DNA of 64,000 nt. It comes from Bacteroidales bacterium (GTDB lineage Bacteria; Bacteroidota; Bacteroidia; Bacteroidales; WCHB1-69). This document shows, piece by piece, positions 6,667 to 62,313 of the stretch. The notes below the pieces were generated by a model. That model did not search any database. It saw only the letters and a list, made by a program, of their open reading frames with translations, and was not told the DNA's origin. The first letter of the stretch is position 1. The number at the start of each line of letters is the position of its first letter. Made by a program: the position numbers and the translations under genes. The stretch covers positions 21,390-85,389 of the forward strand of contig JAEEQA010000002.1 of assembly GCA_016285085.1 (NCBI GenBank), given 5' to 3'.

Positions 6667-7092
6667 CTAATTATAAGGTCTTTTCAATATTTCTGAATAA
6701 ACAATCCCTTTGTATAAATCTTCCATATCAAGCGATATTTGCATTTTTTTTCTCTCCTCATCTTCAATGTTTTGAACATTTATTTCAACATCACTCCCGG
6801 AACAACTTTTCACCGCTGACGTTTCTTCGTTGATTTCCGGTTCAAGATTTTCGTAAGTGAAATAGGGGTTGTTTTTCGGAATTTCCTCGTAAGATGTCGG
6901 CGGTTTCGCTTCCTCTTCCTGATAATCTGCCTCCAATGTTTCCCATTCAGGTTCTGACATCACAGTGGGTTGAGGAAACGGGCTTGGTTTCGGTTTGCGT
7001 TGCGCCTGTTGCTGCGCCTTTCTCTTCGATTTGCTGTATGCCCGAAGAAGCACAAACGCAATGATGCCAATTGTTATTAGGGTATCTACCAT
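6667..7092 (-). CDS. hypothetical single-pass membrane protein with acidic tail
   Basis: 141 aa. N-terminal TM helix (LITIGIIAFVLL), then a KR-rich stretch and an E/P-rich region. No recognisable domain. Confidence 0.4.
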   Translation of the reverse strand: MVDTLITIGIIAFVLLRAYSKSKRKAQQQAQRKPKPSPFPQPTVMSEPEWETLEADYQEEEAKPPTSYEEIPKNNPYFTYENLEPEINEETSAVKSCSGSDVEINVQNIEDEERKKMQISLDMEDLYKGIVYSEILKRPYN

Positions 7093-7129: not shown

Positions 7130-7159
7130 TGTAGAGACGCAAAATTTTGCGTCTCTACA
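7130..7159. repeat. GTAGAGACGC palindromic element (perfect 30-nt palindrome, AT loop)
   Basis: TGTAGAGACGCAAAATTTTGCGTCTCTACA, intergenic upstream of mutS. Confidence 0.9.
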
Positions 7160-7298: not shown

Positions 7299-9905
7299 AT
7301 GGGAAAACAGGCGGAAACCCCGTTAATGAGGCAGTACAACCAGTTCAAAGCGAAGTATCCGGATGCTATTTTGCTGTTTCGGGTGGGTGACTTTTATGAA
7401 ACTTTCGGCGAGGATGCCGTGAAGACCTCGCAAATTCTCGGAATTGTGCTCACCAAACGGTCGAACGGGGCCGCCGCCGACCAGGACCTTGCCGGATTTC
7501 CGCATCATGCACTCGACACCTACCTTCCCAAACTGGTCCGGGCCGGCTACCGTGTCGCCATCTGCGACCAGCTGGAAGACCCAAAACTCACCAAAACCCT
7601 TGTCAAACGCGGTATCACCGAACTGGTAACCCCCGGCATCGCCACCAACGACAAGATTTTGGAACAGAAGGAGAACAACTTCCTCGGGGCCATCCATTAC
7701 GACAGCAACTGCAGCGGCATTGCCTTTGTGGATGCCTCCACCGGCGAATTTTACCTCGCCGAAGGCAATAACGAGTACATTGACAAACTGTTGCAGAATT
7801 TCAAACCCGCTGAAATGGTGATCCAGAAGGGAAAGGTGCAGGAGTTCCGCGAACATTTCGGGGAGAAGATTCTGCTCACCACCTTTGAGGACTGGGTCTT
7901 CACCTCCGACTACACCGTGCCTCTGTTGACCCAACACTTTCAGACGAACTCTTTAAAAGGTTTCGGTATCGAAAATCTCACCAAAGGCATCATTGCTGCC
8001 GGCGCTGCCCTCCACTACCTCAGCGAAACCCAGAACCATAAGGTACAACATATTAACAAGTTGAACCGAATTGAGGAAGAACATTACGTCTGGCTCGACC
8101 GCTTCACCATCCGGAATCTGGAACTGATCCACTCCCCCAACGAAAATGCGGTGACCCTGCTGCAAATCCTTGACAAAACCCTCACCCCGATGGGCGGCCG
8201 CCTCCTCAAGAAATGGATTCTGATGCCCCTGAAGGAGAAAATGCTGATTGAGGAACGGCTTTCCGTGGTCAATTTCCTCATTGACAATGAGGAATTTAAA
8301 TGCGATATTGAAGCCCTTGTCCGCACCATTGGCGACCTGGAGCGTATCGGCTCGAAGATTGCCACGGGCAAGGTGAACCCTCGCGAACTCTTACAACTGG
8401 CGCGGGCACTCCGTTCCATCGCCGCCCTGCAGAAACTGTGCGCGGCACAGTCACAACCTGCCCTCAACAAAATGGCGGAACAACTGAATCCGTGCCTGTC
8501 GGTTTGCAAACGCATTGAAAACGAGATAAGTGAGGATGCTCCCGTGGCCATCAACAAGGGACGGATTTTCAAGAAAGGGGTGGATGCCGAATTGGACGAA
8601 CTCACCTCGCTTTCGCAGAACAGCAAGGCGATTTTGGCGGAAATCCAGCGTCGCGAGACCGAAAAAACAGGCATTTCCTCCCTCAAAATCGGATTCAACA
8701 ACGTGTTTGGCTATTATTTGGAGGTGACCAACGCCCATAAGGACAAGGTCCCGGCCGAATGGATCCGCAAGCAGACCCTCACCAACGCCGAACGCTATAT
8801 CACTGAGGAACTTAAAGAGCTAGAAAGCAAAATCCTGGGCGCAGAGGACAAAATCCTGAGCATCGAAACGCGCCTGTTCAATGAATTGGCCCTCTCCCTC
8901 ATCGACTATATCCCGATGATTCAGACGGACGCCCGTATTGTCGCCAGAATTGATGTACTTTCCTGTTTTTCAACTATTTCTAAAGAAAATCAATACATCC
9001 GGCCCGTCATTGACGACAGCACCGTGATTGACATCAAGGGTGGACGGCACGCCGTGATTGAAACGCAGCTGCCGCCAGGAGAATCGTACATTGCCAACGA
9101 TGTGTATTTGGATAACGAAAAACAGCAGATCATCATCATCACCGGACCCAACATGTCGGGTAAGTCGGCGCTGCTGCGGCAAACGGCGCTGATTGTGTTA
9201 ATGGCGCAGATGGGCTGCTACGTTCCCGCCGTCAGCGCCCGCATCGGCGTGGTGGACAAGATCTTCACACGCGTCGGGGCTTCCGACAACATCTCCACCG
9301 GTGAATCCACTTTCATGGTCGAGATGAACGAGACGGCCAGCATCCTCAACAACATCTCCAACCGGAGCCTCGTGCTTTTGGACGAAATCGGCAGAGGAAC
9401 AAGTACTTACGACGGTGTTTCCATCGCTTGGGCCATTGCCGAATATCTGCATGAACACCCCGTACACCGTGCCAAGGTGCTGTTTGCCACCCACTACCAT
9501 GAGTTGAACGATATGGCGGCGCAGTTCAAACGCATCAAGAACTACCATGTTTCCGTCAAGGAAGTGAACAATAAAATCCTGTTTTTAAGGAAGTTGAAAG
9601 AAGGAGGAAGCGAGCACAGTTTCGGTATCCACGTGGCAAGGATGGCCGGGATGCCCCAACAGGTGCTGAACCGCGCCGACGAGGTGCTGAAGCAGTTGGA
9701 GGAGAGCCACAGCAGCAAGGAGGAACGAAGCATCAAGAAGAAACCCGCCCAAGCTGGCTACCAGCTCAGCTTTATCAATCTGGACGACCCGCTGCTGCTG
9801 GACATCAAAGACATCATCATTGATTTGGATATCAATTCGTTAACACCCGTAGAGGCCTTGATGAAATTGAATGAAATCAAAACGATGCTGACACGGGGTA
9901 AATAA
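7299..9905 (+). CDS. mutS: DNA mismatch repair protein MutS
   Basis: 868 aa. N-terminus [34 protein letters not shown]. Walker [16 protein letters not shown] and [12 protein letters not shown] motifs. Confidence 0.97.
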
Positions 9906-9910: not shown

Positions 9911-10729
9911 TTAGCGCACGGAAAACACATTTTTGCCATTCGCCTTCAACACCTCCTGTGCCGCCTGGTTCTGCATAATGGCACCGCCCCATTCGTTGAA
10001 ATCATACACATTAGGTTCTCTGAACCAATTATTTACATTCATTCTCAAGGTGATTTCCGATGTGGTGGACTCGCCTATTTCCAAAGAGGCAAGCGGCAAG
10101 GTGACGGTAAAGAAATTATGGACAAATCCCGTGATTTCCCCATCTTGATAGGTTTGGCCTATGCCGCTGTGCAGGCAGAAAGGCGTCAATTCATCGTTGG
10201 TATTCAACCACTTGCCATTGATTTGCATATAGTGGTAGCCGCCGCCGATGGGTTCAGGCCACGCCATGTTGGTTTCCGGTGGATTGACGAAAAAGCCCGT
10301 GACGTTCTGTGCGGCATCCAAGCCGAAGACAAAAGAGATGCTTTTGTATTTTCCTACAGATAACTCATCGTCAATCAACCAATTAAAGGTTGAAGAAATA
10401 TCGGAGTCGTAGTAATGGATTCCGTCATTGTCGGTAACGGACACCTGTGTGCCGTCGGATTTGGTCAGCACCACGCGGGAGATGAAGTAACGGACCTCAT
10501 TAACCTCGTAGTGATTTCCCGCATCGTTCACATAATCAAGCACATCATATTGCAAGGTATGGCCATCCACCTCGGTGACGAAATGCACTTTGAGGTGGCC
10601 TGTTGGAACGGGTTTTTTACAACCAATGAAACAAAACAGGAATAACAGCAGGAACAGAATACGTTGTAGAGACGCAAAATATTGCGTCTCTACGATTACG
10701 AATTTATGGGTTTTAACCATATTATCCAT
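9911..10729 (-). CDS. MbnP-like lipoprotein
   Basis: The track ORF 9911-10894 overlaps the upstream gene, so I start it at the internal ATG 10729 (or 10720). Lipobox LFLFCFIGC. The body resembles the MbnP family (VRYFISRVVLTKSDGTQVSV, GGGYHYMQINGKW, MNVNNWF); this is pattern-level recognition only. The n-region of the signal peptide contains a palindromic repeat (VETQYFASLQ). Confidence 0.5.
   Translation of the reverse strand: MDNMVKTHKFVIVETQYFASLQRILFLLLFLFCFIGCKKPVPTGHLKVHFVTEVDGHTLQYDVLDYVNDAGNHYEVNEVRYFISRVVLTKSDGTQVSVTDNDGIHYYDSDISSTFNWLIDDELSVGKYKSISFVFGLDAAQNVTGFFVNPPETNMAWPEPIGGGYHYMQINGKWLNTNDELTPFCLHSGIGQTYQDGEITGFVHNFFTVTLPLASLEIGESTTSEITLRMNVNNWFREPNVYDFNEWGGAIMQNQAAQEVLKANGKNVFSVR
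10666..10693. repeat. GTAGAGACGC palindromic element
   Basis: GTAGAGACGCAAAATATTGCGTCTCTAC, inside the predicted N-terminal region of the MbnP-like CDS. Confidence 0.9.
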
Positions 10730-10733
10730 TTTT

Positions 10734-10774
10734 CTACTACCCTGGCCTACGGCCACCCCTTCTACATAGAAGGG
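10734..10774. repeat. double-hairpin REP-like element (CTACTACCC-GC hairpin-ACCCCTTCT-loop-AGAAGGG)
   Basis: CTACTACCCTGGCCTACGGCCACCCCTTCTACATAGAAGGG. It fills the 50-nt gap between two minus-strand genes. Confidence 0.8.
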
Positions 10775-10779
10775 AAATT

Positions 10780-11334
10780 TTACCATTCGTCGGTTTTTTC
10801 GGCGGCGGGCTGCATGCCGTCCACCAGGGAGGAGATGAGGGCCTGGATCTGTTCGTCCACCTCCTGGAGGTTGATGAAACATTCGGGATCCCATTTTTTA
10901 TCCTCGGGATTGAGCCACCGTTCAATGGGGGCTGCAGCTGTCGCTTTTTCATTGAAATCGGTGATGGTATAGCGGTAGCGGCCGTCGCGGCACTGGAGTT
11001 TAAAATTGTAATAGACCACGTTCTTTGTCAGTTTGGAACCGTCTTTCTGGTGGGAATAGATTCGGACGGAGGAGCGGAAATCGATGACGTGGTTGGTAGC
11101 GTCGTTGTTTTTGATGACTTCGGCGGTGTTCTTGTAGAACGACTTGGCCCATTTCAAGGCGCGTTCATACAGCTCCTGTGCGGAGCCGTTTTCTTGTATA
11201 ACCTCCTTGTACGTAATAAGTTGTGTTTCATCATCAATGGGCATGTCCGGCGCAACGGGAGCGGTGCCTTTTTTCTGTGAAAAGCCTGTCATTGCTACGG
11301 CGAGCAACATAACGAACAAAAAAATCCTTTTCAT
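10780..11334 (-). CDS. DUF4468-like secreted protein
   Basis: Start taken at MKRIFLFVMLLAVAMTGFSQ (ATG 11334), preceded by a TAnnTTTG box. The upstream track extension translates the promoter. Domain call from general resemblance (YERALKWAKSFY..., RYRYTITDF). Confidence 0.55.
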   Translation of the reverse strand: MKRIFLFVMLLAVAMTGFSQKKGTAPVAPDMPIDDETQLITYKEVIQENGSAQELYERALKWAKSFYKNTAEVIKNNDATNHVIDFRSSVRIYSHQKDGSKLTKNVVYYNFKLQCRDGRYRYTITDFNEKATAAAPIERWLNPEDKKWDPECFINLQEVDEQIQALISSLVDGMQPAAEKTDEW

Positions 11335-11444: not shown

Positions 11445-11449
11445 AAGAA

Positions 11450-18490: not shown

Positions 18491-18518
18491 GTGGAGACGC
18501 GATGAATCGCGTCTCCAC
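18491..18518. repeat. palindromic element variant (GTGGAGACGC), likely also a terminator hairpin
   Basis: GTGGAGACGCGATGAATCGCGTCTCCAC, a 13-bp stem between the radical SAM gene and rfbC. Confidence 0.85.
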
Positions 18519-19335: not shown

Positions 19336-19464
19336 GATTTTCAAACGAAGCCGCCTCTTGTTTATTGTTTGTTTTTTCAATCTTTTCAACCTTCTGCATT
19401 ATACCTTTTACCTTACATTTTCTTTGATTGAACGAACGATCGTGCTAATGCTGAGAGCACGGTT

Positions 19465-19476
19465 GTGCGTCTCTAC
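19465..19476. repeat. half copy of the palindromic element (right arm only)
   Basis: TGTGCGTCTCTAC with no matching left arm. Confidence 0.6.
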
Positions 19477-19531
19477 TTGATGAACTTTATAAACCTGCAA
19501 CTTTATAACTGATTTTATGGTATTTTTGCCG
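19476..19531 (+). repeat. right copy of the 56-bp inverted repeat (promoter/leader module of folA)
   Basis: CTTGATGAACTTTATAAACCTGCAACTTTATAACTGATTTTATGGTATTTTTGCCG. Confidence 0.85.
19521..19528 (+). promoter_or_regulatory. -7 box TATTTTTG (folA)
   Basis: TAnnTTTGCCG, 17 nt before ATG 19545. Confidence 0.55.
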
Positions 19532-40816: not shown

Positions 40817-40819
40817 GTT

Positions 40820-40861: not shown

Positions 40862-40869
40862 AATACAGC

Positions 40870-40899: not shown

Positions 40900-40968
40900 A
40901 ACACAATACCAACCTCGCCCCGTAAGGACAAAAGAAAATAGAATGAAATAATCAAAAACACCCATATT

Positions 40969-43944: not shown

Positions 43945-44109
43945 ACCTCCTACTTGTTACCTATCACCTTTTATGAACCCTCCGATTAGCCGCCATACTA
44001 CGACAAAACTACCTAAAGAAAACCTTCACATCTTCACACCTTCACTTCTTAGTTTCTTAACTCCTTAACTCTAAACTTTAGACTTTAAACTTTTAAATCC
44101 AAAATAATT
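43945..44109 (+). repeat. G-depleted leader module, copy A (ends at ATG 44110)
   Basis: Hand-aligned with copies B and C. ACCNNNN heptads, core CCGATTAGCCGCCATACTA, then CTT-type heptads. Confidence 0.85.
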
Positions 44110-45708
44110 ATGAAAACCACCCAAACCCTTCTCAAATCCTTTCTCCTTCTGTCGCTGCTGATAGTGACGGGAGGAACGATGTGTGGCCAGCATATTGTGT
44201 ATGAGCCGTACGATTTTCGGCAGGTGAACGCCGATGGCGACACCCTCTATTACCGTATAACTTCCTATACAGAACCTTACACCGTGGCGGTGACCCGCTG
44301 CCACGACTCCACTTACCATCTGTTACCCCAGCCCAGTTATGAATGGCAGATTGGGCAGCCAGGATTCGCTTATCCAGTCTATGACTATGATTCGCTCATC
44401 AACATACCTCCGACCGTTACGTACGACGATGTGATATACACAGTGACAGCCATTGACATTGAGGCTTTTTATAACCAAAAAGGAATAAGTGTAGTGAATT
44501 TGCCATCCACCATTGAAACCATTGATTCGGCTGCCTTTTATCTGTCATCATTGACAGAAATTTCGTTGCCAGAAAATTTGCGATCGATAAAATATGAAGC
44601 ATTTCTTCGCACACCAATTAGTGAAATACACCTACCCCAATCCTTATCGCATATTGGAGCTTTAGCTTTTGCTCACACTAATATTTCAGAGGTTGACTTA
44701 CCCAGTGGCGTTGATACATTACGGTATCTGGCTTTTTGCGGATGTCCTATTGAAAAAATCACCTTGCCGGAAGGTCTTGTCGTTATAGAAGAGAGGGCTA
44801 TTACATGCGAGTACTTGGACACGCTCATTTTCCCGAGCAGTTTGAAATGTGTTGGCTCTTTATTTAGAAGCATATCCTCGAATTTTGATAATTTCACGGA
44901 ATGGAATCAATTAAAATATGTGAAATTCACAAATGGGCCAGAACCCTTGTCGCTTGGCAAGCGTTGTTTGGCCGGATGCCCTCATTTGGAGACATTGATA
45001 CTCTCTGACAATATAGTAAGTTTTGGTGAGGAATGCTTTTCTTACAGCACTATTGACACGATGGTGATACCTCAAAATGTCAGAATGATACCAGGCCATT
45101 GTTTTTTTCATTGTGATTCATTACGGAGTGTTATTTTCCCTGAACACCTTGACACTATATCCCATTATGCATTTTCTTTTTGTCCATTATTGGAATCCAT
45201 TGTTCTCCCTAATGATTTAAAATACATAGGAGGATATGCATTTAATGCCTATAATGGAGATTCTATCGGAGTGAAAGAGATTCGTGTTCTTAGTGAGGAA
45301 CCGCCTGTATTACATTGTAATAATTATGTATTTCCTCGGATTTGGCCCATAATGTGCACAATCCCTTGTGGAACTTTATCCGATTATCAGAATAGCATTT
45401 GGGGTGCTGTTTATACAAATTTGTCTTTCTACGAAGATTGCGATGCTGTGGAGGAGCACACTGATTCTGAAATTAGAATTTACCCCAATCCCGTAAGCGA
45501 TGTGATTTATATAGAGCTGTTAGAACAAAAGGAGAATACAAACAAACAGGCGTCTGTCTATACTATTACAGGCCAAATGATTGATTCATATATTTTTAAT
45601 TCTCATGATTTTGAAATCAACTTGCAGGATTATCCAAGCAGTGTTTATATTCTTAAGGTGACCGACAACTCGGGAATATTTTTACAGGAAAAAATCATAA
45701 AACAATAA
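44110..45708 (+). CDS. BspA-type leucine-rich-repeat surface protein with T9SS C-terminal sorting domain
   Basis: 532 aa with a signal peptide. Repeated ~22-aa LRR units (IxxxAFxxCxxLxxIxLPxxL). C-terminus IRIYPNPVSDVIYIEL...VYTITGQMI...SVYILKVTDNSGIFLQEKIIKQ. Confidence 0.85.
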   Translation: MKTTQTLLKSFLLLSLLIVTGGTMCGQHIVYEPYDFRQVNADGDTLYYRITSYTEPYTVAVTRCHDSTYHLLPQPSYEWQIGQPGFAYPVYDYDSLINIPPTVTYDDVIYTVTAIDIEAFYNQKGISVVNLPSTIETIDSAAFYLSSLTEISLPENLRSIKYEAFLRTPISEIHLPQSLSHIGALAFAHTNISEVDLPSGVDTLRYLAFCGCPIEKITLPEGLVVIEERAITCEYLDTLIFPSSLKCVGSLFRSISSNFDNFTEWNQLKYVKFTNGPEPLSLGKRCLAGCPHLETLILSDNIVSFGEECFSYSTIDTMVIPQNVRMIPGHCFFHCDSLRSVIFPEHLDTISHYAFSFCPLLESIVLPNDLKYIGGYAFNAYNGDSIGVKEIRVLSEEPPVLHCNNYVFPRIWPIMCTIPCGTLSDYQNSIWGAVYTNLSFYEDCDAVEEHTDSEIRIYPNPVSDVIYIELLEQKENTNKQASVYTITGQMIDSYIFNSHDFEINLQDYPSSVYILKVTDNSGIFLQEKIIKQ

Positions 45709-45782: not shown

Positions 45783-45951
45783 ACTGAAAATTGTAAACCT
45801 CCTACCTGTCACCTATCACCTTTTACTACCCCACCGATAGCCGCCATACTATGACGGCACTACCAAAAGAGAACCTTCACTCCTTCACTTCTTAGTTTCT
45901 TCACTTCTTAACTCTAAACTATAGACTTTTAACTTTAAAACCCAAATAGTT
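45783..45951 (+). repeat. G-depleted leader module, copy B (ends at ATG 45952)
   Basis: Starts ACTGAAAATTGTAAACCTCCTACCTGTCACCTATCACC. Preceded by a -7 box at 45722. Confidence 0.85.
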
Positions 45952-46896
45952 ATGAAAAAAATTGCAATAACTTTTTTCTTTTATGTAGTCATTCTATCCA
46001 GCTACCCGCAAATATCAATTTGTAATAACCAAATATGGGCGTCTGATACAATTTCAAATAATTATATCGACGGACATATCTATTACTCGGCAGAAACACG
46101 GACTTTAACCCTTGATAACGCTCAAATAGATGTCCCATGGCCCAACGACGACCATATTACGGATGTATTGTTTCTGTCTGAATGTCAACTAGAGATACAC
46201 CTTATAGGTGAGAATACTATTTCAGGTATATTTCCAATTAATTTATTTCGTTCAAACTGTGTGATATCTGGTTCTGGGAAATTGATACTGAGGACATTGA
46301 ATTTCGTTCATTGTTGTAGCGTTAATTTTCAAGACACACTTACCACACTCTCTATCCAAAACAATGCAGAAGTAGAGTGTTATGCCTATAATGAATGGAA
46401 TACAGGTGCCGGATTCAGAGGACATGGATACGATTGGAATGATACGACTATAGCTCTTTCAGAACGAAGTACTGAATATGCAGGAAACGTATTCGTTAAT
46501 TCAGCTACGCTACGGATAAATGCTGACATGTGCATATATCGGTTGGCAGATTTACGACTGGACGGTTGTCATTTTTCCAGTCCGGAGAATGCTTATTTTG
46601 ATTCTGATCTTCACACAGTGGTCAGTTCGGAGCAAATGGTAACGGAGTATCTGGAAGTGTTGCCTGGGTCAGTGGGCATCCCAAATGTTCAGTTAGAGAC
46701 AGAACGTGCATGGGGAGCATTGGGGTCAATCCATATAGAAAATGTGTCGTATGGACAATCGGTAAAAATATACAATATAACGGGTCAGGAGATTTATCGA
46801 ACGAAGGCACATTCATCCAAAATCAAATTGGAAACCTCTCCTGGTATATATATTGTTCGATTCCAAAATCATAGTCAAAAAGTTGTAGTTTATTAA
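45952..46896 (+). CDS. secreted protein with T9SS C-terminal sorting domain
   Basis: 314 aa with a signal peptide. C-terminus IHIENVSYGQSVKIYNITGQEIY...SPGIYIVRFQNHSQKVVVY. Confidence 0.75.
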   Translation: MKKIAITFFFYVVILSSYPQISICNNQIWASDTISNNYIDGHIYYSAETRTLTLDNAQIDVPWPNDDHITDVLFLSECQLEIHLIGENTISGIFPINLFRSNCVISGSGKLILRTLNFVHCCSVNFQDTLTTLSIQNNAEVECYAYNEWNTGAGFRGHGYDWNDTTIALSERSTEYAGNVFVNSATLRINADMCIYRLADLRLDGCHFSSPENAYFDSDLHTVVSSEQMVTEYLEVLPGSVGIPNVQLETERAWGALGSIHIENVSYGQSVKIYNITGQEIYRTKAHSSKIKLETSPGIYIVRFQNHSQKVVVY

Positions 46897-47729: not shown

Positions 47730-50700
47730 ATGAAAAAATTTATATTTTTCACGTGTCTGATTTTGGTTATTCATTTGATTTATGGACAGAGTGGAGGCAA
47801 TTTTTATTATGCCGAGGGTCAACAGCATTTCTTTTCAACGGATTCTACATCTGTTAATATCCTTGTCAGAAATATGCAACATTATGACACTATTGCAAAA
47901 GCTATATCTGCTTTTTATTCTGATTCTTCTGAATATGCGGTATACTATGACAATGAAGACGATAACATTATTGTAAGTAGCAAATCTATTGTGCTGCGAA
48001 ATATCGATTCCTTGCTACAACAACTTGCTCCAAATAATAACGACATTGCTTTTATCAGCTATGCCAAACAAATTGGTGGTAGTCATTTTTGGTTAAGGAA
48101 TGAAGTGTATGTGAAATATAGGGATTCTCTTCAAGCTGTAGCAGATTTATCAAATGTTTTATCCTTATACACAGTTGAGCAGGTTGTATATGAAGGTGAT
48201 TATGAATACAGACTGATCATCAACGACGAAAATCAACTATTGAACCTTGCTAATTCGTTATATGATACGTCTAAGGTAATATATTCTACCCCTGACTTTT
48301 ACGGCGAAATAGAACTTAACACCTCCGATACGTATTTTGAAAGACAATGGGGGTTATTGAATATTGGCCAAGAAGGCGGACAATCAGGATATGACATTAA
48401 TGCCGAATTAGCGTGGGATTTTTTAAGTGACCTTTTTGGAAATTCCACATTCCCTACAATCAAGGTGGCAGTCATTGACGATGGTGTTGAAAATCATGAA
48501 GATATGTATGACTCAAATGGGCAAAGTAAGGTCTTACAAGGATGTACTCCAGGATGGACGGACCACGGTGCACCAGTCCCTAAGAGCAAACATGGTGAAT
48601 GTTGCGCTGGTATAATAGCTGCCTCTCACAATTCCATTGGTATAGCCGGAGTTGCAGAAAACACTCAAATAATCCCGATAAGAATCTTCAAAAGAACAAA
48701 TTTAAAAGCATTCAGTTACGCTCGCATTGCAAAAGGTATTACTAAGGCGTGGAAAGAACTTGGTGCAGATATTCTTAGTAACTCTTGGTCTGAAAAAGAT
48801 ATTACTGTATCAAATGACAAATTAAACAATGCTATAACAAAAGCATTGTCAAGTGGTCGTAATAACAAAGGATGCGTTGTTGTTTTTTCTTCAGGGAACA
48901 ATAATACTTTCGTTAACTATCCTGCAAATCAAAGTGGGGTTATTGCAGTTGGAGGTATTGAACGATGTGGCTGGAGAGCAGGGAACCATCTTACTGCATA
49001 TATGTGTGACCATTGGAATGGTTCTTCCTATGGCAGTTGCTTTGGCAGTGCTTTGAGTGTGGTTGCACCTGCAACTAATATTTGGGCTACAGATAGACAG
49101 GGTAATGGGTATGGCTACGATGAATATAGTAAATATATCACATTTAATGGAACATCCGCTGCTTGCCCTCACGTTTCGGGGGTTGCTGCGCTAATGCTAA
49201 GCGTTAATCCCTCTTTAACACAGAATCAAATACACTCTATTATCAATAGTACAGCCCAAAAGATCACTCATTACGAATTCGTCATCAGCAATGGTCACAA
49301 TGATGGCACATGGAACAATGACGTTGGATACGGTCTTGTTGATGCACACAAGGCTGTCTGTGAAGCTAGGTTGTTTGGACATTCCTTTGCCATCCAAGGT
49401 GCAACAACAGTGAACACCTGTTCTAATTATACTTATTCTTTAATTGGGAATTTGCCACCTGAATTCAATATCGTTTGGGAAGTGAATCCCCAAATGATTA
49501 TCATTGAAGGTCAAGGAACCACTCAGGTATTAGTTAAACCCGTATATCCAGCAACAGGAAACACTGTAGTTGCCCATATTTGTCATGGTGGGGAAATAAT
49601 TAGGACTATTGACAATTTAGGATACATTGTTTCTTATGGTACAAACTATTCTATGGCGATTTCGTCAGATAGCACATTGACATCCAATATTATTTGGGGA
49701 GACAAAAGACAATTGGCCTATACTCTTTCCATTGATTCATTGGCTACTCTTACCATTACAGATACTCTGCTTTGCGTTTCTGGTTCCCGCATCATCGTGC
49801 GTCCGGGCGGGAAGCTCATCGTGAACGGCGGCACGCTCACCAATGCGTGCGATGGCGAGATGTGGGAGGGCATCTTCGTGGAAGGCAACCGAGACCTGCG
49901 GCAGCTGGCAACAAGGCAGGGCAGCGTCATCCTTACCAATGCCACCATCGAAAACGCCCGCAACGCCATCTCCACACGGGGCTTTGAAGAAAGCACCTGG
50001 TGGTACAAGACGGGCGGCATCGTTCAGGCCACCAACACGCTGTTCCGCAACAACCGCCGCAGTGTTGAGTTCCTCGACTACGAGAACCACAAGTCAAGCG
50101 GAGGCATCGCCAGCAACGCCAGCCACTTTGACCGTTGCACCTTCACGGTGGACGACGACAACCTGTTCGCTGAAAACGACGCTACCTTCGGCAGCCATGT
50201 GACGATGTGGAAAGTCCGCGGCGTGAAGTTCAACGGCTGCACCTTCCGCAACGAGACGGTTGAGCATGTGGGGCTGACACGGGGCAGTGCCATCACTGCG
50301 GAGGAGGCGGGGTTCTTTGCCCAGCGAGTGTGCCCGCGCGTGTTGCCCCAAGACCCGTGTATGTGCCTTCCGTTGGGCAGCGACACGGTGACGCGCTGCA
50401 GTTTCGAAGGGTTCCACAAAGCGGTGAATGCCACCAACACCTTCGGGAACTACGACATCACCCTCGACAACTGCGACTTCGCCCACAACCACGCGGGTGC
50501 AACGCTGTCTGCAGCGGACAACGCAAGAGTGAGCTTCTGCGACTTCGACCTGTCGGACACGCTCTCCTACTGCGGGATAGAACTCGAAAACAGCACGGGC
50601 TACACGGTGGAGGAAAACTTTTTCCACAGACAGTACAACACCAATGCCTACAAAGTGACCGGAATCTATGTGGGAAACAGCGGCACGTCGGAGAATGTGA

Positions 50701-51995
50701 TCCGCAAGAACAGCTTCAGCAACGTCAATTGGGGAATCGCAGCCACAGGGACAAATGCCCTCAATTCAAGGACAAGGATTCCCGGCCTTCAATTTGAATG
50801 CAATAGTTTTGCTGGTGGCAAGACCGACATTTCTGTGAACAGTGGCACCGTCCGAGGGACACAAGGTTCCGCTTCTGCAGGAGCTGACAACGTGTTCACC
50901 GGCTTGTGGTCAAGCCAGAGCATTGTGCTGTCCGCCGCCAACAACATAACCTATTATTACAGCAATGGAACAAATCATATTCCGAACAATTCCAGCACAG
51001 GGGTGACACCAGTGGGTTCCGCTACGGCCAACGGCTGCGCCTCAAGCCTGTGCGGCATGCAGGTGAACCCGAAGGGCACCGGAACAGCCCTGGCGCAATA
51101 CCGTGCGCTGGCGGAAGAATATGCGGATCTGGCAGAGACGTGGTGCACCGCGTCTCTACAGCCAACCGACACGATGATGCCCGACAATCCGCAGGATGCG
51201 GAAACCGCCACCCTGCAATCGCGGCTGTCGGACCTGTCGGCGGCGATGGGCGACCTTGCCCGCACCGAAATCCGCGCCATCCTGTCCGACACCGTGGTGG
51301 ATATGGCGCTGCTGAAGGAATGGTACCGCGCCATTGTAGAGGCGTGGTGCACCGCGCCTCTACAGGACACCATACAAACCGACATCCCTGTGGCGGCCTA
51401 CCAGCTGGCGGAGGTGTACAGCCACGAGGGGGATTACGCCGCGGCCAACGCCGTGCTGTCCTCCCTCCCTGAACGGTTCAACCCGGACGAGGCCTCGCGG
51501 AACGAATACGGCAACTACCTCGCCCTCCAGCGGCTGCGGGAGAATGTGTCGGGCAACTGGTACCGCCAGACGGACACGGAAATCGCCGACCTGCAACGGG
51601 TGGCGGAATACGACAACGGCCGCGCCGCCCGCATGGCGAAGGAAATCCTCTGTTTCTTCCACCACATCTGTTATGAGGACGAACCGATTCTGCCGGAATT
51701 GTCCGATGGTGCAATCGGGGAACGCAACGCCCGTAGAGACGGGGCGCGCCCCGTCTCTACGACAACCGGCAATCTCACCCTCCACCCCAACCCCGCGCAC
51801 ACCACCCTCACGGTGGAATCCGACAGCCCCGTCCGCGAAATCACCATCTACGACCTGACGGGAAAAACGATGATGACAGTTGGAAATTGTCCGTCGCCCG
51901 CAACCGTAAATGTTGTATCTTTGCCGCGTGGCATCTACCTGCTCCGCGCCGTGACGGAAGAGGGGGCGCAGACAGCACGGTTCGTAAAGAACTGA
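47730..51995 (+). CDS. S8 (subtilisin-family) serine peptidase with parallel beta-helix region and T9SS C-terminal sorting domain
   Basis: 1421 aa. Catalytic motifs VAVIDDGV (Asp), HGECCAGIIAA (His), GTSAACPHVSGVAALM (Ser). Residues ~690-1050 have beta-helix-like repeats (NCxF/NNxA). C-terminus LTLHPNPAHTTLTVES...IYDLTGKTM...GIYLLRAVTEEGAQTARFVKN. Confidence 0.9.
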   Translation: MKKFIFFTCLILVIHLIYGQSGGNFYYAEGQQHFFSTDSTSVNILVRNMQHYDTIAKAISAFYSDSSEYAVYYDNEDDNIIVSSKSIVLRNIDSLLQQLAPNNNDIAFISYAKQIGGSHFWLRNEVYVKYRDSLQAVADLSNVLSLYTVEQVVYEGDYEYRLIINDENQLLNLANSLYDTSKVIYSTPDFYGEIELNTSDTYFERQWGLLNIGQEGGQSGYDINAELAWDFLSDLFGNSTFPTIKVAVIDDGVENHEDMYDSNGQSKVLQGCTPGWTDHGAPVPKSKHGECCAGIIAASHNSIGIAGVAENTQIIPIRIFKRTNLKAFSYARIAKGITKAWKELGADILSNSWSEKDITVSNDKLNNAITKALSSGRNNKGCVVVFSSGNNNTFVNYPANQSGVIAVGGIERCGWRAGNHLTAYMCDHWNGSSYGSCFGSALSVVAPATNIWATDRQGNGYGYDEYSKYITFNGTSAACPHVSGVAALMLSVNPSLTQNQIHSIINSTAQKITHYEFVISNGHNDGTWNNDVGYGLVDAHKAVCEARLFGHSFAIQGATTVNTCSNYTYSLIGNLPPEFNIVWEVNPQMIIIEGQGTTQVLVKPVYPATGNTVVAHICHGGEIIRTIDNLGYIVSYGTNYSMAISSDSTLTSNIIWGDKRQLAYTLSIDSLATLTITDTLLCVSGSRIIVRPGGKLIVNGGTLTNACDGEMWEGIFVEGNRDLRQLATRQGSVILTNATIENARNAISTRGFEESTWWYKTGGIVQATNTLFRNNRRSVEFLDYENHKSSGGIASNASHFDRCTFTVDDDNLFAENDATFGSHVTMWKVRGVKFNGCTFRNETVEHVGLTRGSAITAEEAGFFAQRVCPRVLPQDPCMCLPLGSDTVTRCSFEGFHKAVNATNTFGNYDITLDNCDFAHNHAGATLSAADNARVSFCDFDLSDTLSYCGIELENSTGYTVEENFFHRQYNTNAYKVTGIYVGNSGTSENVIRKNSFSNVNWGIAATGTNALNSRTRIPGLQFECNSFAGGKTDISVNSGTVRGTQGSASAGADNVFTGLWSSQSIVLSAANNITYYYSNGTNHIPNNSSTGVTPVGSATANGCASSLCGMQVNPKGTGTALAQYRALAEEYADLAETWCTASLQPTDTMMPDNPQDAETATLQSRLSDLSAAMGDLARTEIRAILSDTVVDMALLKEWYRAIVEAWCTAPLQDTIQTDIPVAAYQLAEVYSHEGDYAAANAVLSSLPERFNPDEASRNEYGNYLALQRLRENVSGNWYRQTDTEIADLQRVAEYDNGRAARMAKEILCFFHHICYEDEPILPELSDGAIGERNARRDGARPVSTTTGNLTLHPNPAHTTLTVESDSPVREITIYDLTGKTMMTVGNCPSPATVNVVSLPRGIYLLRAVTEEGAQTARFVKN
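51134..51157. repeat. palindromic element inside the S8 peptidase CDS
   Basis: AGAGACGTGGTGCACCGCGTCTCT, translated AETWCTASLQ. Confidence 0.8.
51335..51364. repeat. palindromic element variant inside the S8 peptidase CDS
   Basis: TGTAGAGGCGTGGTGCACCGCGCCTCTACA, translated VEAWCTAPLQ. Confidence 0.85.
51732..51761. repeat. palindromic element inside the S8 peptidase CDS (perfect 30-nt palindrome, GC loop)
   Basis: CGTAGAGACGGGGCGCGCCCCGTCTCTACG, translated RRDGARPVST. Confidence 0.9.
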
Positions 51996-52161
51996 AAATT
52001 GAAAACCTCCTACCTGTCACCTATCACCTTTTACGAACCTGCCGATTAGCCGCCATACTATGACGGCTCTACCAAATTAGAACCGTACCCCCCTTCACTT
52101 CTTAGTTTCTTAACTCCTTAACTCTAAACTTTAGACTTTTCACTTTACCCCCCAAATAGTT
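51991..52161 (+). repeat. G-depleted leader module, copy C (ends at ATG 52162)
   Basis: Starts ACTGAAAATTGAAAACCTCCTACCTGTCACCTATCACC. The TGA inside ACTGAAA is the stop codon of the S8 peptidase. Confidence 0.85.
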
Positions 52162-53340
52162 ATGAAAACACCCCGAACCTTTTTCCGAGCATTTCTCCTT
52201 CTGACGCTGCTGGTGGCGGGAGGGAACATCGCGGTGGCGCAAACAGACAGTTGTGCCGTGAACGTGATCCACACCTATATGAATGGGCGGCTTATCCCGT
52301 GGGACAGCGTGAAAATCAAGGTTTGTGAGCCCCCTTGTGAGAGGCCCTACCATTACCACACTTTTATGCTCTATTGGCCCGACACGTTGCTGACCAATTG
52401 TACAACAGGCATAGAGGAGTACGTCTCGGCACAGGAGACAGAGTTGTCACAAGTCTTTCCAAACCCCTGTGCTGGAACGAGCCAAGTGAAGCTGACCTTA
52501 CGGAATTCAGGAATAGTTTCTGTGAGTGTGATGGATTTGCAAGGACGGCTTTGTTGCCGGAAAACGCTGCAACTTTCGTCTGGCGAGCACCTGTTATCGC
52601 TGACGCTGCCCCAAAACGGGTTCTACTTTGTGCAGGCCGAAAGCCCGCAGGGCAGCGAAGTGTGCAAGGTGCTCTGTACGGAGGGTGAAGGCTCTGATTT
52701 CGACATCCGTCTGACATCCACCTCTTTCCAAACAATGGAAAGGATTGAAAAAGCAAGCAAAGGGGGCGAGGGATTATTCAATATGACGGACAAGATGCTA
52801 ATCACCGCGTACATTACATATACAGGGGAAGTGAGAACTTGGCAATGGAGTATAAATTACGATTTGGAGTTGGATGGGGAAGTGACTAGTGAGTGGATGT
52901 CAAATATTGGATCCCTAAATATTCATTATACTGAAACTGACAGTTGTGATAACTTCACTCTTTCTGACAGAAATTTCAACGTGATTATTGCGAGTAGTAT
53001 TTGTTTGCCAACAATGGAATATCCTGTGGGTTATCGTGTTACATTCTATGATTCAACTTTTTATTCAGAGCCGACCTCCTTAGCAGCATATACAAGTTCC
53101 ACTTGGTATTTTAATGGGTGGTACAAATATCGGTATTACCCCGAAGATCTTGGAGGATGTATTTGCATCGGAGATATAAATGGGGAGATGCCACCTGAAC
53201 ATATTGATTACTATGGACAACTATCACCTTATGATTATTGCATACGACACTTGGACAAATTAACTTGCAATGAATTTAAACTTTATAAATTCACAGTATA
53301 TGGGAATGATGATGTGGAAGTTTTTGTTAGTAACGAATAA
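52162..53340 (+). CDS. secreted protein with an internal T9SS-CTD-like domain, hypothetical
   Basis: 392 aa. Signal peptide MKTPRTFFRAFLLLTLLVAGGNIAVAQ. Residues ~94-175 (LSQVFPNPCAGTSQVKLTL...GFYFVQAESPQGSEVCKVL) look like a Por_Secre_tail but are followed by ~220 more residues. Paralog of the gene at 63292. Confidence 0.65.
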   Translation: MKTPRTFFRAFLLLTLLVAGGNIAVAQTDSCAVNVIHTYMNGRLIPWDSVKIKVCEPPCERPYHYHTFMLYWPDTLLTNCTTGIEEYVSAQETELSQVFPNPCAGTSQVKLTLRNSGIVSVSVMDLQGRLCCRKTLQLSSGEHLLSLTLPQNGFYFVQAESPQGSEVCKVLCTEGEGSDFDIRLTSTSFQTMERIEKASKGGEGLFNMTDKMLITAYITYTGEVRTWQWSINYDLELDGEVTSEWMSNIGSLNIHYTETDSCDNFTLSDRNFNVIIASSICLPTMEYPVGYRVTFYDSTFYSEPTSLAAYTSSTWYFNGWYKYRYYPEDLGGCICIGDINGEMPPEHIDYYGQLSPYDYCIRHLDKLTCNEFKLYKFTVYGNDDVEVFVSNE

Positions 53341-53350: not shown

Positions 53351-53755
53351 ATGAAAGCAGCAATAAAAATATTGTTTATAGTCTGTGGTTTTATCTTTTT
53401 GTTCGTTTTCCACCCTTGTTTCGGACAAACACAGGACAAAGAAAGCATCTATGACAGACAAGGAAATAAAATATATTTTGACAAGGTAGAGGATGTCTTT
53501 CATATCGGATTTGCAGAAGGAACGGAGGCTAATACAAGAAATGAGGTACTAGCAGATCTTTCAAATATTGCTAACTACACTATGTTTCCCGACAGTTCGT
53601 ATCGTCTTATTATAAAACAAGGCTGTTCTGCTTTTTTCAAAGAAAAAGCATTAAAGAACAATGTTGTGACCTATTGTACCACCTTACAATACCGACGATT
53701 AGACGCACAACCGTGCGTCTCTACATACATTTTCCTCTTAACTCTTGACTCTTGA
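53351..53755 (+). CDS. small secreted protein, hypothetical
   Basis: Start at MKAAIKILFIVCGFIFLF (ATG 53351 inside the track ORF 53270). The C-terminal 20 codons run through a palindromic repeat and into the CTCTTRA array. Confidence 0.5.
   Translation: MKAAIKILFIVCGFIFLFVFHPCFGQTQDKESIYDRQGNKIYFDKVEDVFHIGFAEGTEANTRNEVLADLSNIANYTMFPDSSYRLIIKQGCSAFFKEKALKNNVVTYCTTLQYRRLDAQPCVSTYIFLLTLDS
53701..53724. repeat. palindromic element, left arm partly degraded
   Basis: AGACGCACAACCGTGCGTCTCTAC, in the last codons of the 53351 CDS (DAQPCVSTY). Confidence 0.7.
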
Positions 53756-53832
53756 CTCTTGACTCTTGACTCTTGACTCTTGACTCTTAACTCTTAACTC
53801 TTAACTCTTAACTCTTAACTCTTAACTTCTAA
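53735..53832 (+). repeat. tandem heptamer array CTCTTAA x1, CTCTTGA x6, CTCTTAA x6, CTTCTAA x1
   Basis: Counted by hand. The stop of the plus-strand gene (53755) and the stop of lspA (53829-53831, minus strand) both lie inside it. Confidence 0.9.
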
Positions 53833-54407
53833 CTCCCCGCCTCTTCCTTCTTATCCGAAAAATCCTTTAAGAAGAACAGCAGGCCGATGAGTCCCACGGT
53901 GACACAGCTGTCGGCGAAGTTGAAAATGGCAGGGAAGAAATACTCGCCGCCGAAGACCGGGAACCAGTCGGGCAGCAGGAACAGCGGGAAGTAGAACATA
54001 TCGACCACGCTTCCGTACAAAAACGGCGCGTAGCCGAAAATCACGCCGTAAAACAGGGAGTCAACGATATTGCCGATCGCGCCGGCCAGCACCATCGACG
54101 AAAGGATAACCGTGCCCGTGCGCAACTTCCCCAATTTAATCAGTTTGAACACATAGTAGGTCAGGAACCCGACCACGCCGATGCGGAAGAGCGACAGCAG
54201 CAGTTTGCCGATATTCTGACCAAAACTCACGCCGAAGGCAATCCCTTCGTTTTCGACAAAATGAAGAAGGAACCAGTGCCCGATGACGGGAATGGTTTCT
54301 CCGGGGGTCATGTTCGTTCTGACCAAAATCTTGATAATCTGGTCAATGACAACCAACACAACCATAACGATGATGGCCGTGAGGGTTAATTTCTTGCTCT
54401 TTTCCAC
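53829..54407 (-). CDS. lspA: lipoprotein signal peptidase (signal peptidase II)
   Basis: 192 aa. FVENEGIAFG, GAIGNIVDS, IFNFADS motifs. 4 TM helices. Confidence 0.9.
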   Translation of the reverse strand: MEKSKKLTLTAIIVMVVLVVIDQIIKILVRTNMTPGETIPVIGHWFLLHFVENEGIAFGVSFGQNIGKLLLSLFRIGVVGFLTYYVFKLIKLGKLRTGTVILSSMVLAGAIGNIVDSLFYGVIFGYAPFLYGSVVDMFYFPLFLLPDWFPVFGGEYFFPAIFNFADSCVTVGLIGLLFFLKDFSDKKEEAGS

Positions 54408-56660: not shown

Positions 56661-56666
56661 CGAATA

Positions 56667-56701
56667 AATTGAAAACTGAAAATTGAAAACTGAAAGTTTG
56701 A
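56667..56701 (+). repeat. heptad array AAATTGA AAACTGA AAATTGA AAACTGA AAGTTTG
   Basis: Upstream of the minus-strand DUF4296 gene. The same words ACTGAAAATTGAAAAC open leader copies B and C. Confidence 0.75.
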
Positions 56702-61200: not shown

Positions 61201-62313
61201 CTGCTGCAGACGTGGGGCATGGCGCATGGCCTCGACCGTAACGACTTTGACCAGATCATCTTGAATTACAAGAAGAAATACAACGTAACGCAGAAAATCG
61301 GGTTCACGCCTGAGAACATGCGGGAGATTGCGTTCGCCTACAAGCAGTTCCTCACCGACAACGGTATCGCCTTCGAGAGTGACCCGTTCAAGCAGTTGAA
61401 GAAGGCCATCCTGTGCGTGTTTGAGTCGTGGAACTCGCCGCGTGCCAAGGTCTATCGCAGCCAGATGCACATTGCGGAAGAGTGGGGCACGGCAGCCACC
61501 ATCCAGAAGATGGTGCTGGGCAACATCCACCGCGAGTCCGGTTCCGGCGTGGTGTTCACTCGCGATGTGAAAGAGAACCGCGCCAACATCCGCCTCACCG
61601 GCGACTTCTCGTTCCTCAGCCAGGGCGAGGATATCGTGGGCGGCTTGGTCAACACGCTGCCTATCAGCGAGGCACAGCGGGAGACGGGCTATCAGAATTG
61701 TCCCTTCTCGTTGCAATCACAATACCCCGAGATTTACAACAAACTGTTGGAGGTGGCGAAGAACATGATCGAGAAGGATGGTTTCAGCCATCAGGAAATC
61801 GAGTTCACCTTTGAAACGGCGAAGGGCGAGGATCTGTACATCCTGCAAACCCGCAACATGGTGGTTTCCAACCAGACATCAGTGGAAACCTTCGGCGAAA
61901 AACCGGAAAACATGGACAAGGTTGGAACGGGTATCGGCATCGGCAACGGCGTGCTGAACGGCATCATCGTGTTCGACATGGACGACATCCGCAAGGTGCG
62001 CAACGGCGACGACCCGACGCAGCAGATTGTGCTGGTGCGTCCCGACACCGTGCCGGACGATATCGAGCTGATCATCGAGTGCGACGGCTTGCTGACGGCC
62101 CGTGGCGGCGCCACTTCCCACGCAGCCGTGACGGCGGCGGCACTCGGAAAAACCTGCGTAGTGAACTGCGAGGCCCTGCACGTCCACGAGAAGGAAAAGA
62201 GCTGCACCATCAACGGCGTTCCCTTCAAGGTGTTCGACCCTGTCGCCATCGACGGCCGCAACGGCATCATCTACAAGGGAAATTACTTGGTCGTGCTGGA
62301 CGACTTCAACTAA
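58210..62313 (+). CDS. orphan dikinase-like protein: ~800-aa unknown N-terminal region + PPDK-type ATP-grasp and phosphohistidine swivel domains, no PEP/pyruvate TIM-barrel
   Basis: 1367 aa. Its ATG overlaps the GAPDH stop (ATGA). The C-terminal third has PPDK N-terminal signatures: LSVRSGSAISMPGAMNTFLNVG, GTAATIQKMVLGN, GSGVVFTRD, SQGEDIVGG, EIEFTFE..LYILQTR, and the swivel-His motif TARGGATSHAAVTAAALGKTCV. The protein ends ~55 aa later. Confidence 0.8.
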   Translation: MTNEINSKALEVNLKNTNVEYVIPDEHQWFIKQSENQWGLHKRVVEFFTEYDHPMSNRTEVVKALPNVTISDFWLYKELPLEDQKRIVDIVLAIYDKLLSEKLPHTKAKDLVTYFLRFIDSNDGVLNACGDGVKRCIQILDKYLDDNAFSYYCHIGQFKVKLAKAANNPDTADITFKMMQRLVKSHIQYWRETTQIMQWYESHKAKMSRDYSQELETLGDKMFDEFVGLADNAKSWQELCDNAFTFGDIIKAFQSKIYVFAHTSEQFSYIFYLLHLPGTVDNHPQLLVELNKVIKHVSNEKDEDLCIASIDNLFEQFADFRDSHLNLILDSIFELGKEIIHTDNHRLIRHLEKKIIDFGFVTPGVKYVTNDWELKVNPCHIKNVRVWLELVELAPETMQRLLSALIINLRIGGIFVFDTDFFQKDITKLLNSEISPVYKQTKQLARIFPVYFNEIGAEGQLRDVSTKVDELSHRNDKLIHFLRKQIHTEGNNSHIQITLDVISFWYDRKKERLHEILPPNVYELVEDHGIWVDGVHDCLHKFCEFANVPLEELIEMKKDKVEQIGRKINHPDEIDVQRVCLIIELYQLLKEKYIFDSTNIINIMRRNSFVETEDVNTLEELLKGKDTVATLEHIFSIMRKLNEIIFDPKPSTGWENVVYKRHIAFGIPSMYGYYRENKFDALGLIFRLERIVTVLVHDLIENINTSIFTLKAIKEICSTIQLLYEGLKLDGVSDQGFESNLKMLQYSLNSGCFTTEQYINLFQFMGSSLNEIISNYFIRPYEPLLKIIIPQLMEENITDKVELKKILAQKSEVFYRELLSSSFLIQQVDNFIGEILNNLRTQANLLSPEEAQNLMTYDQELAISPLYQETPAVDNKVFLGAKAYYLKRLVLGGYPVPPGFVVTTEVFRRMNAILKVAPINRELDRMIKRQLTAIEKITGQEFGNPKNPLLLSVRSGSAISMPGAMNTFLNVGMNDEITEQLSKQDNYAWTSWDCYRRLLQTWGMAHGLDRNDFDQIILNYKKKYNVTQKIGFTPENMREIAFAYKQFLTDNGIAFESDPFKQLKKAILCVFESWNSPRAKVYRSQMHIAEEWGTAATIQKMVLGNIHRESGSGVVFTRDVKENRANIRLTGDFSFLSQGEDIVGGLVNTLPISEAQRETGYQNCPFSLQSQYPEIYNKLLEVAKNMIEKDGFSHQEIEFTFETAKGEDLYILQTRNMVVSNQTSVETFGEKPENMDKVGTGIGIGNGVLNGIIVFDMDDIRKVRNGDDPTQQIVLVRPDTVPDDIELIIECDGLLTARGGATSHAAVTAAALGKTCVVNCEALHVHEKEKSCTINGVPFKVFDPVAIDGRNGIIYKGNYLVVLDDFN

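Follow-up and report, generated by a model that had tools for sequence, protein, structure and literature searches.

Palindromic repeats carried in frame inside protein-coding genes are established for Rickettsia palindromic elements (RPE-1 to RPE-10), which occur in Rickettsia only, measure ~100-150 bp, add ~30-50 residues and have no known transposase. Here we describe a 28-nt palindrome that recurs in a 64-kb stretch of a Bacteroidales genome (assembly GCA_016285085.1, contig JAEEQA010000002.1, positions 21,390 to 85,389; hereafter the window), both between genes and in frame inside the genes of a secreted S8 serine peptidase and an MbnP-like lipoprotein. These copies very probably represent double-foot repetitive extragenic palindromes (REPs) of the REP-associated tyrosine transposase (RAYT)/TnpA-REP subclass 2.4 (Bertels group 4), borne in frame where tolerated. 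Like the Rickettsia elements, they are palindromic repeats in coding genes that give surface peptide segments; unlike them, they are 28 nt long, encode ~10 residues, occur in Bacteroidales and many other phyla, and are linked to RAYTs, and there is no sequence relation between the two.

Among described systems, TnpA-REP subclass 2.4 carries the motifs NH[IFV]H, WQ and YIxNNP, and its 'double foot' REPs, with a 5' GT[AG]G and a 3' C[TC]AC, are numerous in Cyanobacteria and Bacteroidetes, with scattered occurrences in other phyla (Quentin et al. 2018, BMC Genomics 19:475, PMC6006769). The same study reported REPs in frame within tnpA-REP transposase genes, and suggested that a double-foot REP is an inverted REP doublet collapsed by central deletion. 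While its in-frame hosts are transposase genes, the hosts described here are ordinary genes, namely a protease carrying a type IX secretion system (T9SS) sorting domain and a lipoprotein signal peptide, in a window with no RAYT. Intragenic GTAG and CGTC REPs have also been catalogued in other phyla, with no GTAG REPs and only CGTC repeats listed in Bacteroidetes (Di Nocera, De Gregorio and Rocco 2013, BMC Genomics 14:522, PMC3733652). Those REPs likewise form short hairpins in open reading frames (ORFs), adding residues with the frame kept, many of them N-terminal with an uncertain start, and were read as tolerated insertions; however, their GTAG is unpaired at one end, whereas here both feet are present and base-paired within a fixed 28 nt. 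REPINs, or REP doublets forming hairpins (Bertels and Rainey 2011, PMC3116915), share the symmetric unit, the GTAG foot on each strand and the RAYT link, but consist of two inverted REPs and a spacer (~70-110 nt in total) rather than a single palindrome without a spacer. By analogy, the double-foot REP seen here may be a collapsed REPIN doublet. The initial annotation of the window, made from its sequence alone, held that no equivalent had been described for this element type in Bacteroidota. That claim must be withdrawn, as the element and its in-frame insertion are known from RAYT genes of Bacteroidetes and Cyanobacteria (PMC6006769) and intragenic GTAG REPs from unrelated genes (PMC3733652). 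The element kind and in-frame REPs are already known, and it is the host group that is new.

A strict pattern (GTAGAGRCG-N(4-16)-CGYCTCTAC) matched the window four times, against none expected from 100 shuffles, and each match was exactly 28 nt long. A relaxed scan added the copies at 51132 (one foot mismatch, GCAG) and 18491 (GTGG/CCAC feet), bringing the complete copies in the 64 kb to six, all of 28 nt (7131, 10666, 18491, 51132, 51336 and 51733; Table 1), beside two to three degenerate remnants that include those near 19450 and 53697. The feet read GTAG…CTAC at 7131, 10666, 51336 and 51733, GTGG…CCAC at 18491 and, with one mismatch, GCAG…CTAC at 51132. Among the window copies the outer 9 nt are constant, while the inner 10 nt vary, yet stay self-complementary; REP1 and REP2 have an identical core and are separated by a compensatory change in the stem, from A-T to G-C. 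Folded as RNA, the window copies form stems of 12-14 bp at -20.6 to -26.4 kcal/mol (REP1 -21.9, REP2 -25.3, REP3 -26.4, 7131 copy -24.8), with z-scores of -4.8 (REP1) to -8, and none of 200 shuffles folded as well. With subclass 2.4 the copies share the foot sequences, a stable hairpin, multi-copy dispersal, taxonomic range, and presence or absence at orthologous sites. A CRISPR (clustered regularly interspaced short palindromic repeat) identity was ruled out, the copies being single and irregularly spread, from 200 nt to tens of kb apart. An Rfam scan of the whole window at gathering thresholds returned three tRNAs only, with no family at the palindromes. Literature searches with the DNA words GTAGAGACG and CGTCTCTAC gave primer or short hairpin RNA matches only, and those with the peptides QNFASLQ, DAKFCVST, HGRASLQ, CHGASLQ and DARPCVST gave no match.

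Three of the copies lie within the S8 peptidase gene. Its single frame encodes both a Peptidase_S8 domain (residues 244-535, E 1e-44) and a Por_Secre_tail sorting domain (residues 1352-1418, E 9e-9), and a database search with the protein found one entry identical to it, along with dozens of homologs of ~1400 residues from Bacteroidales metagenome-assembled genomes (MAGs), of which ~60 full-length ones cover 96-100% of the query at 30-41% identity. Two strain contigs, L002 (GCA_016295205.1; 99% identity to the window over 14.3 kb) and L003, are identical to the window in DNA through S8 codon 1304. An intact, strain-shared ORF with full-length homologs is neither a pseudogene nor an assembly chimera. 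The initial annotation was accordingly right that three palindromes sit in the 1421-aa ORF without breaking its frame; it also read their peptides correctly and placed them to within 2 nt.

An alignment of 20 full-length S8 homologs (the window protein and 19 relatives) showed the REP2 peptide to lie within a 15-residue stretch that 18 of the 19 relatives are without, which bears out the insertion that the initial annotation expected of such a comparison. In the same alignment, REP1 falls in a length-variable stretch and REP3 in the variable linker ahead of the sorting domain. Residues 1081-1421, modelled with AlphaFold2 (mean predicted local distance difference test score, pLDDT, 76), comprise nine helices, a disordered linker and a beta-sandwich. 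In the numbering of the model, REP1 takes up the final turn of helix 38-62 and the beginning of loop 63-73, REP2 the end of helix 112-126 and loop 127-137, and REP3 the linker 238-266 (pLDDT ~30), just ahead of the C-terminal domain (CTD). The predicted structure thus agrees with the earlier expectation of loops and linkers. All three copies do lie between the beta-helix and the CTD, as first described; the region is not one of low complexity, however, but a conserved, confidently modelled alpha-helical domain (with motifs AVRAILxDTV, EIAELQxIAE and VLCFFxGICYE across homologs), in which only REP3 belongs to a disordered linker. REP-like peptides flanked by gaps also occur in other S8 homologs: VETQNLVSLQ in P0003, VETCHGASLQ in P0004 and P0005, VETQDFASLQ in P0005 as well, VEANNYSPLQ in P0007 and VETQNFASLQ in P0019. 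The same 28-nt palindromes are present at the locus of P0004, from another organism (L001): its 24 kb carry six, of which two fall within the S8 homolog and a third just past the gene. Moreover, the REP1 site holds a REP with another core in a paralog on L003 and in P0019, and the REP3 site holds a different GTAG-type hairpin in L002 and L003.

The copy at 10666 provides a second case, in which orthologous sites could be compared. In the MbnP-like gene the REP, at 10666-10693, is preceded by in-frame ATGs at 10786, which overlaps the stop (10780) of the DUF4468 gene lying upstream, at 10729 and at 10720; the start is most likely the overlapping ATG, or that at 10729 or 10720. A lipoprotein signal, RILFLLLFLFCFIGC, directly follows the REP, and no ATG, GTG or TTG lies between the REP and the h-region and lipobox. 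Among the 120 matches listed, homologs at 75-98% identity include a clade with a REP peptide at the same place, whereas P0137-P0142 (75-78% identity) and all more distant homologs listed have a plain short signal, e.g. MSHRTYLFLVLSLAFLCASC. The gene calls in ~10 orthologs take in the REP peptide. At the DNA level, a REP occupies the site in the window and in the syntenic loci L125 and L126, whereas in L124 the site is empty; a further REP lies at 3807 in L125. This supports the proposal, made in the initial annotation, that VETQYFASLQ represents a copy in the signal-peptide n-region. Taken together, the observations on both genes support the view that the palindromes are copies of a dispersed element taken in frame into real genes.

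A second small repeat, GTAGAAGGGGTGSCCGWAGGSCRGGGTAGTAGAA, with a short central hairpin and paired changes, was seen at 10732-10766, 11404-11446 and 40832-40905 of the window (two copies in tandem at the last) and at 3089-3172 of L002. In the N-terminal extension of the MbnP-like protein, one copy is read in frame and belongs to a 66-nt insertion that L125 and L126 do not have. The neighbouring MutS gene is intact (868 aa) in the window and in L124; in L125 (3858-6464) its gene call is split into two ORFs, of 571 aa and 264 aa, ~100 nt apart, with no REP found in the gap.

A scan for the 28-mer over one genome per species (596 Gb) returned at least 120 stretches (L004-L123), from more than 100 species of many phyla. 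Among the matches listed are Bacteroidota, many filamentous Cyanobacteria, Chloroflexi (Anaerolineae), Acidobacteria, Ignavibacteria, Spirochaetales, Planctomycetes, Zixibacteria, Desulfuromonas and Methylococcales, with others. Chance alone predicts ~35 matches (596 Gb, 17 effective bases) and was ruled out as their main source by the inner 10 nt, which the search left unconstrained: in the copies listed these were fully palindromic in 89 of 128 and had one mismatch in 31 more (~94% with at most one), and the 28-mer family is therefore real. Single cores recur in distant lineages, with GCACGGCCGTGC found in Spirochaetales, Chitinophagales and Bacteroidales, GCGATTAATCGC in Nostoc, Scytonematopsis and a Methylococcales MAG, and GTTGCATGCAAC in Trichormus, Desulfuromonas and Anaerolineales. 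The small dispersed repeats of Nostoc reportedly described by Elhai et al. in 2008 may cover the cyanobacterial members. We also observed identical 28-mers, inner core included, across phyla, such as GCAATGCATTGC in Dysgonamonadaceae, Sphingobacteriales and Planctomycetaceae, and the core repertoire is strongly non-uniform. The 28-nt REPs were further found on 116 stretches of viral contigs (IMG/VR); in a recurrent phage (L131), an HK97-like major capsid gene beside a prohead protease lies between copies at 559-586 and 2416-2443, which are 1857 nt apart.

RAYT-like ORFs (NH[LF]H … YIxNNP) were found in six fetched loci of the 28-mer (L015, L016, L038, L057, L074 and L083), with a REP beside or inside the gene in each (Table 1). 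These ORFs matched the NCBIfam model NF047646 ('REP-associated tyrosine transposase') at E values of 1e-14 to 1e-18; their top Pfam match, a weak one, was Y1_Tnp, and PDB 4ER8 (E. coli TnpA-REP) was the sole structural match.

Genes are an underused but not a forbidden location for the REPs: 32 of the 142 REPs in the loci analysed have at least 40 open codons on both sides, compared to 72% of random positions, which indicates depletion that falls far short of exclusion. In addition to the two genes of the window, in-frame hosts with clear Pfam domains include AcrB, MoeA, a GH2 glycosidase, a pullulanase CBM48 and an HlyD-type protein, as well as three more T9SS sorting-domain proteins with a REP in, or just ahead of, the domain. 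When the S8 family (window, L001 and L003) is added, a recurrent permissive site seems to lie in the loops and linker surrounding the T9SS CTD. In other species we noted REPs inside conserved domains, at AcrB residue 422 (L100 2414-5545), at MoeA residue 302 within MoCF_biosynth (L121 691-2001) and at residue 271 in a GH2 Ig-like domain (L060 6114-8000). In one of the three frames, on either strand, the foot gives a G-TAG stop, and two frames stay open: GTA GAG RCG, read as VE[TA]xxxx[SP]L, and xGT AGA GAC, read as RDxxxxVST. Both are used in the window and in other loci. The shared VE[TA]...[SP]LQ frame of three insertions, to which the initial annotation drew attention, does recur, but there is nothing special in it, only two frames being able to survive in genes; its recurrence follows from selection against the frame containing TAG and is not a property of the element.

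A further feature of the occupied sites is that the same position may hold different cores. The L003 paralog of the S8 gene (4465-8040) carries REPs at the window gene's three sites, each with another core (Table 1), so that WCTA in the window protein corresponds to CHGA at site 1 and to QNFA at site 2. MbnP orthologs likewise read VET-QNFA/QYFA/CHGA/RLIA/CCSA-SLQ at one position, along with decayed forms in the same clade; between them the flanks differ by ~15% and the feet not at all, while 6-8 of the 10 core positions are changed, in every case symmetrically. The site-specific variants are those that recur across phyla, and half-REP footprints lie beside full copies at paralog site 1 and in P0130. 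It is possible, although we think it rather doubtful, that the hairpin core at an occupied site is exchanged and not inherited. In-situ replacement of this kind might proceed via RAYT cleavage at both feet, insertion of one REP into another, or 'perfecting' by template switching. The discrete cores, together with the half-REP footprints, could plausibly stem from one REP taking the place of another. The complementarity of the arms could plausibly be maintained through correction of quasi-palindromes by template switching, which is an established mutational mechanism. If core exchange were true, it would constitute a local generator of peptide diversity in the surface loops of secreted proteins and in signal peptides.

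Within the S8 gene, the GC content rises from 35-43% to 55-66% at ~49,700 (window 49550-50000), which coincides with the start, at 49,786, of a C-terminal module of beta-helix, helical domain and CTD; the L003 paralog joins the same module, at ~70% DNA identity, to another N-terminus. Past codon ~1304, L002 and L003 depart from the window, both over the final ~115 codons, which encode the linker and sorting domain (~58% aa identity), and in the genes that follow (divergence intervals: window 51640-52006, L002 13900-14283, L003 2160-2541). This suggests a swap of the S8 3' end by recombination between paralogs, with the junction in a conserved AKEILCFFHHICYED segment that the paralogs share. 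A CTD cassette or shufflon was rejected, given that the strain alleles (P0122, P0121), where their 3' ends diverge, do not match the orphan CTD downstream at 52162-52700, and the strain difference is better explained by recombination in AKEILCFFHHICYED.

Other readings of the in-gene palindromes were weighed against the double-foot REP. It is barely credible that they are ancestral coding sequence, self-complementary by happenstance. Such a view could draw on the occupation of sites 1-3 in the paralog that shares the C-terminal module and on REP1 and REP2 being unchanged in two strains, from which we conclude that the copies are old residents rather than recent arrivals. Yet the same 18 foot nucleotides stand in the intergenic window copies (7131 and 18491) and in more than 100 species of other phyla, the REP2 stretch is a gap in nearly all homologs aligned, and the paralog peptides are wholly different with palindromy kept, which argues for a constraint on DNA or RNA and not on protein. 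Paired changes have retained palindromy even at paralog site 3, whose feet have decayed, and this would also suit hairpins selected by the host as RNA or DNA signals, whether terminators or attenuators, mRNA stabilisers, or pause sites aiding co-translational folding or secretion. Their great stability, the G·T pairs on the sense strand in REP1 and REP2, and the repeated striking of sites near T9SS CTDs in different species point the same way. We nevertheless regard host selection as unlikely: copies occur in every context, from divergent promoters (7131) and the space between tandem genes (18491) to the inside of AcrB and MoeA, and most homologs are without the hairpins. Intrinsic terminators in particular were ruled out, with no T-run behind any copy and nothing found at the REPs by a terminator scan of 50900-52200.

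The gene models could also be at fault, the S8 ORF being a pseudogene or fusion split at the palindromes, or the MbnP start lying downstream of the REP, so that the hairpins are extragenic. The sharp GC jump at ~49,700 and the gene remnants nearby (52162..53340, with an internal CTD, and 53351..53755, truncated) lend this some colour, and for the 53351 ORF it is essentially correct. For the two main hosts it is quite improbable. An S8 ORF split at the palindromes, which the initial annotation had named as a way its reading could fail, is contradicted by the peptidase and sorting domains standing in one frame over 1421 codons, by the near-complete coverage of ~60 homologs and by zero strain differences over 1304 codons. 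A start codon downstream of 10666, the other way in which it might have failed, finds no canonical candidate between the REP and the hydrophobic core, and the orthologous gene calls include the REP peptide.

The double-foot REP remains the preferred identity. According to this model, a miniature non-autonomous element of 28 nt, whose strands both start 5' with a GT[AG]G foot and which forms a perfect or near-perfect hairpin, would be tied to HUH/Y1 RAYT enzymes that act on single-stranded hairpin DNA. A copy landing in a gene would persist only if its frame avoids the TAG of the foot (two of three frames, either strand) and if the extra ~10-15 residues fall in a tolerant place, such as two helix-end or loop positions and the flexible pre-CTD linker in the S8 protein, or the signal-peptide n-region in the MbnP-like protein. 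Presumably a RAYT moved the window copies, and the REP peptides are probably translated and neutral. Several points weigh against this account. The RAYT-like ORFs score under the curated cut-offs, with 53-67 bits against 80 for NF047646 and 17-23 against 23 for Y1_Tnp. A search for the HuH…Y motif by regular expression found no RAYT in the 64-kb window or contigs L001-L003. The closest S8 homologs are 41% identical, exact insertion boundaries and target sites being unreadable at that distance, and no close relative offers an empty site for REP1-3. To our knowledge, full transposition of REPs by RAYTs has never been reconstituted, even in E. coli.

The region downstream of the S8 gene contains further REP-associated sequence. 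Homologs of the 53351..53755 ORF align at residues 1-115 only, ending where the REP remnant starts; its longer relatives continue as …VTYCQNEYRDS..GVVW..NRI.VKM…, to 237 and 816 residues, while the window ORF turns to TTLQYRRLDAQPCVSTYIFLLTLDS*. A 14-copy CTCTTAA/CTCTTGA heptamer array (53735-53835), lying after the remnant at 53697-53724, is the source of the stop. This ORF is a truncated remnant, the 5' fragment of a larger S8-type gene, and not a functional REP-tailed protein. The initial annotation had derived its C-terminus from a palindrome, and a degenerate single-foot copy does supply RLDAQPCVST; the protein is, however, a gene remnant whose homology ends at the REP remnant.

Adjacent to it, the 52162-53340 ORF (392 aa) has a T9SS sorting domain in mid-protein (residues 98-169) followed by a 220-residue low-GC tail. 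Because a sorting domain should be C-terminal, a short cargo gene appears to have been joined to foreign sequence here, through read-through or fusion. Tandem heptamer arrays stand at gene ends and beside REPs at 40753-40817, 53735-53835, 56666-56695, 62308-62352 and 62801-62867, with the units AGGGGAC (nine copies), CTCTTAA (14 copies), AAACTGA, AACTAAG and TAGGGGA. The REP inside the L057 RAYT likewise has short tandem repeats on its flanks, and others occur upstream of the L074 RAYT. This pattern recalls the heptamer repeats of heterocystous cyanobacteria. A segment of ~170-220 nt, at 82-91% identity, lies directly upstream of three successive T9SS cargo genes (43945-44116, 45797-45958 and 52005-52223) and may be a shared promoter or 5' leader.

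Table 1. REP copies, remnants and host genes in the window, cores at the three S8 sites, and REPs at RAYT-like genes.
Feature	Location	Strand	Sequence	Description
REP1	51132..51159		GCAGAGACGTGGTGCACCGCGTCTCTAC	double-foot REP, one mismatch in 5' foot; in-frame AETWCTASLQ, S8 residues 1135-1144
REP2	51336..51363		GTAGAGGCGTGGTGCACCGCGCCTCTAC	in-frame VEAWCTAPLQ, S8 residues 1203-1212
REP3	51733..51760		GTAGAGACGGGGCGCGCCCCGTCTCTAC	perfect 28-nt palindrome; second open frame, (R)RDGARPVST, S8 residues 1335-1344
n-region REP, MbnP-like gene	10666..10693			minus-strand reading VETQYFASLQ
Intergenic REP	7131..7158		GTAGAGACGCAAAATTTTGCGTCTCTAC	between divergent genes 6667..7092 (-) and MutS 7299..9905 (+)
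Intergenic REP	18491..18518		GTGGAGACGCGATGAATCGCGTCTCCAC	GTGG/CCAC feet; minus-strand gene on either side
Single-foot degenerate REP remnant	53697..53724		…AGACGCACAACCGTGCGTCTCTAC	RLDAQPCVST at end of truncated ORF
Degenerate REP remnant	19450..19477		GCTGAGAGCACGGTTGTGCGTCTCTAC	intergenic
S8 peptidase gene	47730..51995	+		1421 aa; secreted S8 serine peptidase, beta-helix, helical domain, T9SS C-terminal sorting domain
MbnP-like lipoprotein gene	9911..10786	-		Pfam MbnP E 4e-23; synteny DUF4468-MbnP-MutS
Site 1	window gene; L003 paralog		TGGTGCACCG; TGCCATGGCG	18-nt half REP ahead in paralog
Site 2	window gene; L003 paralog		TGGTGCACCG; CAAAATTTTG	feet decayed in paralog
Site 3	window gene; L003 paralog		GTAGAGACGGGGCGCGCCCCGTCTCTAC; GGCGATGGGGCATGCCCCATCGCC	paralog a perfect 24-nt palindrome via paired changes, feet decayed
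REPs at RAYT-like gene	L016, 1184 and 1842			identical REPs either side of gene
REP at RAYT-like gene	L038, L074			immediately upstream of gene
REP at RAYT-like gene	L015, L057, L083			inside gene

For annotation, the REP accounts for many VETxxxxSLQ and RDxxxxVST peptides and cautions against calling them conserved motifs or the ORFs that contain them broken. For protein engineering, the copies mark where T9SS cargo and lipoprotein signal peptides are naturally permissive to insertion. The identity of 28-mers across phyla, combined with variable cores at one site, provides a handle on the spread and renewal of REPs by RAYTs. More generally, double-foot REPs extend beyond intergenic DNA and the genes of their own transposases; ordinary genes in Bacteroidales and other phyla carry them in frame, and T9SS cargo recurs as a host, with the copies in the linker and loops close to the sorting domain.

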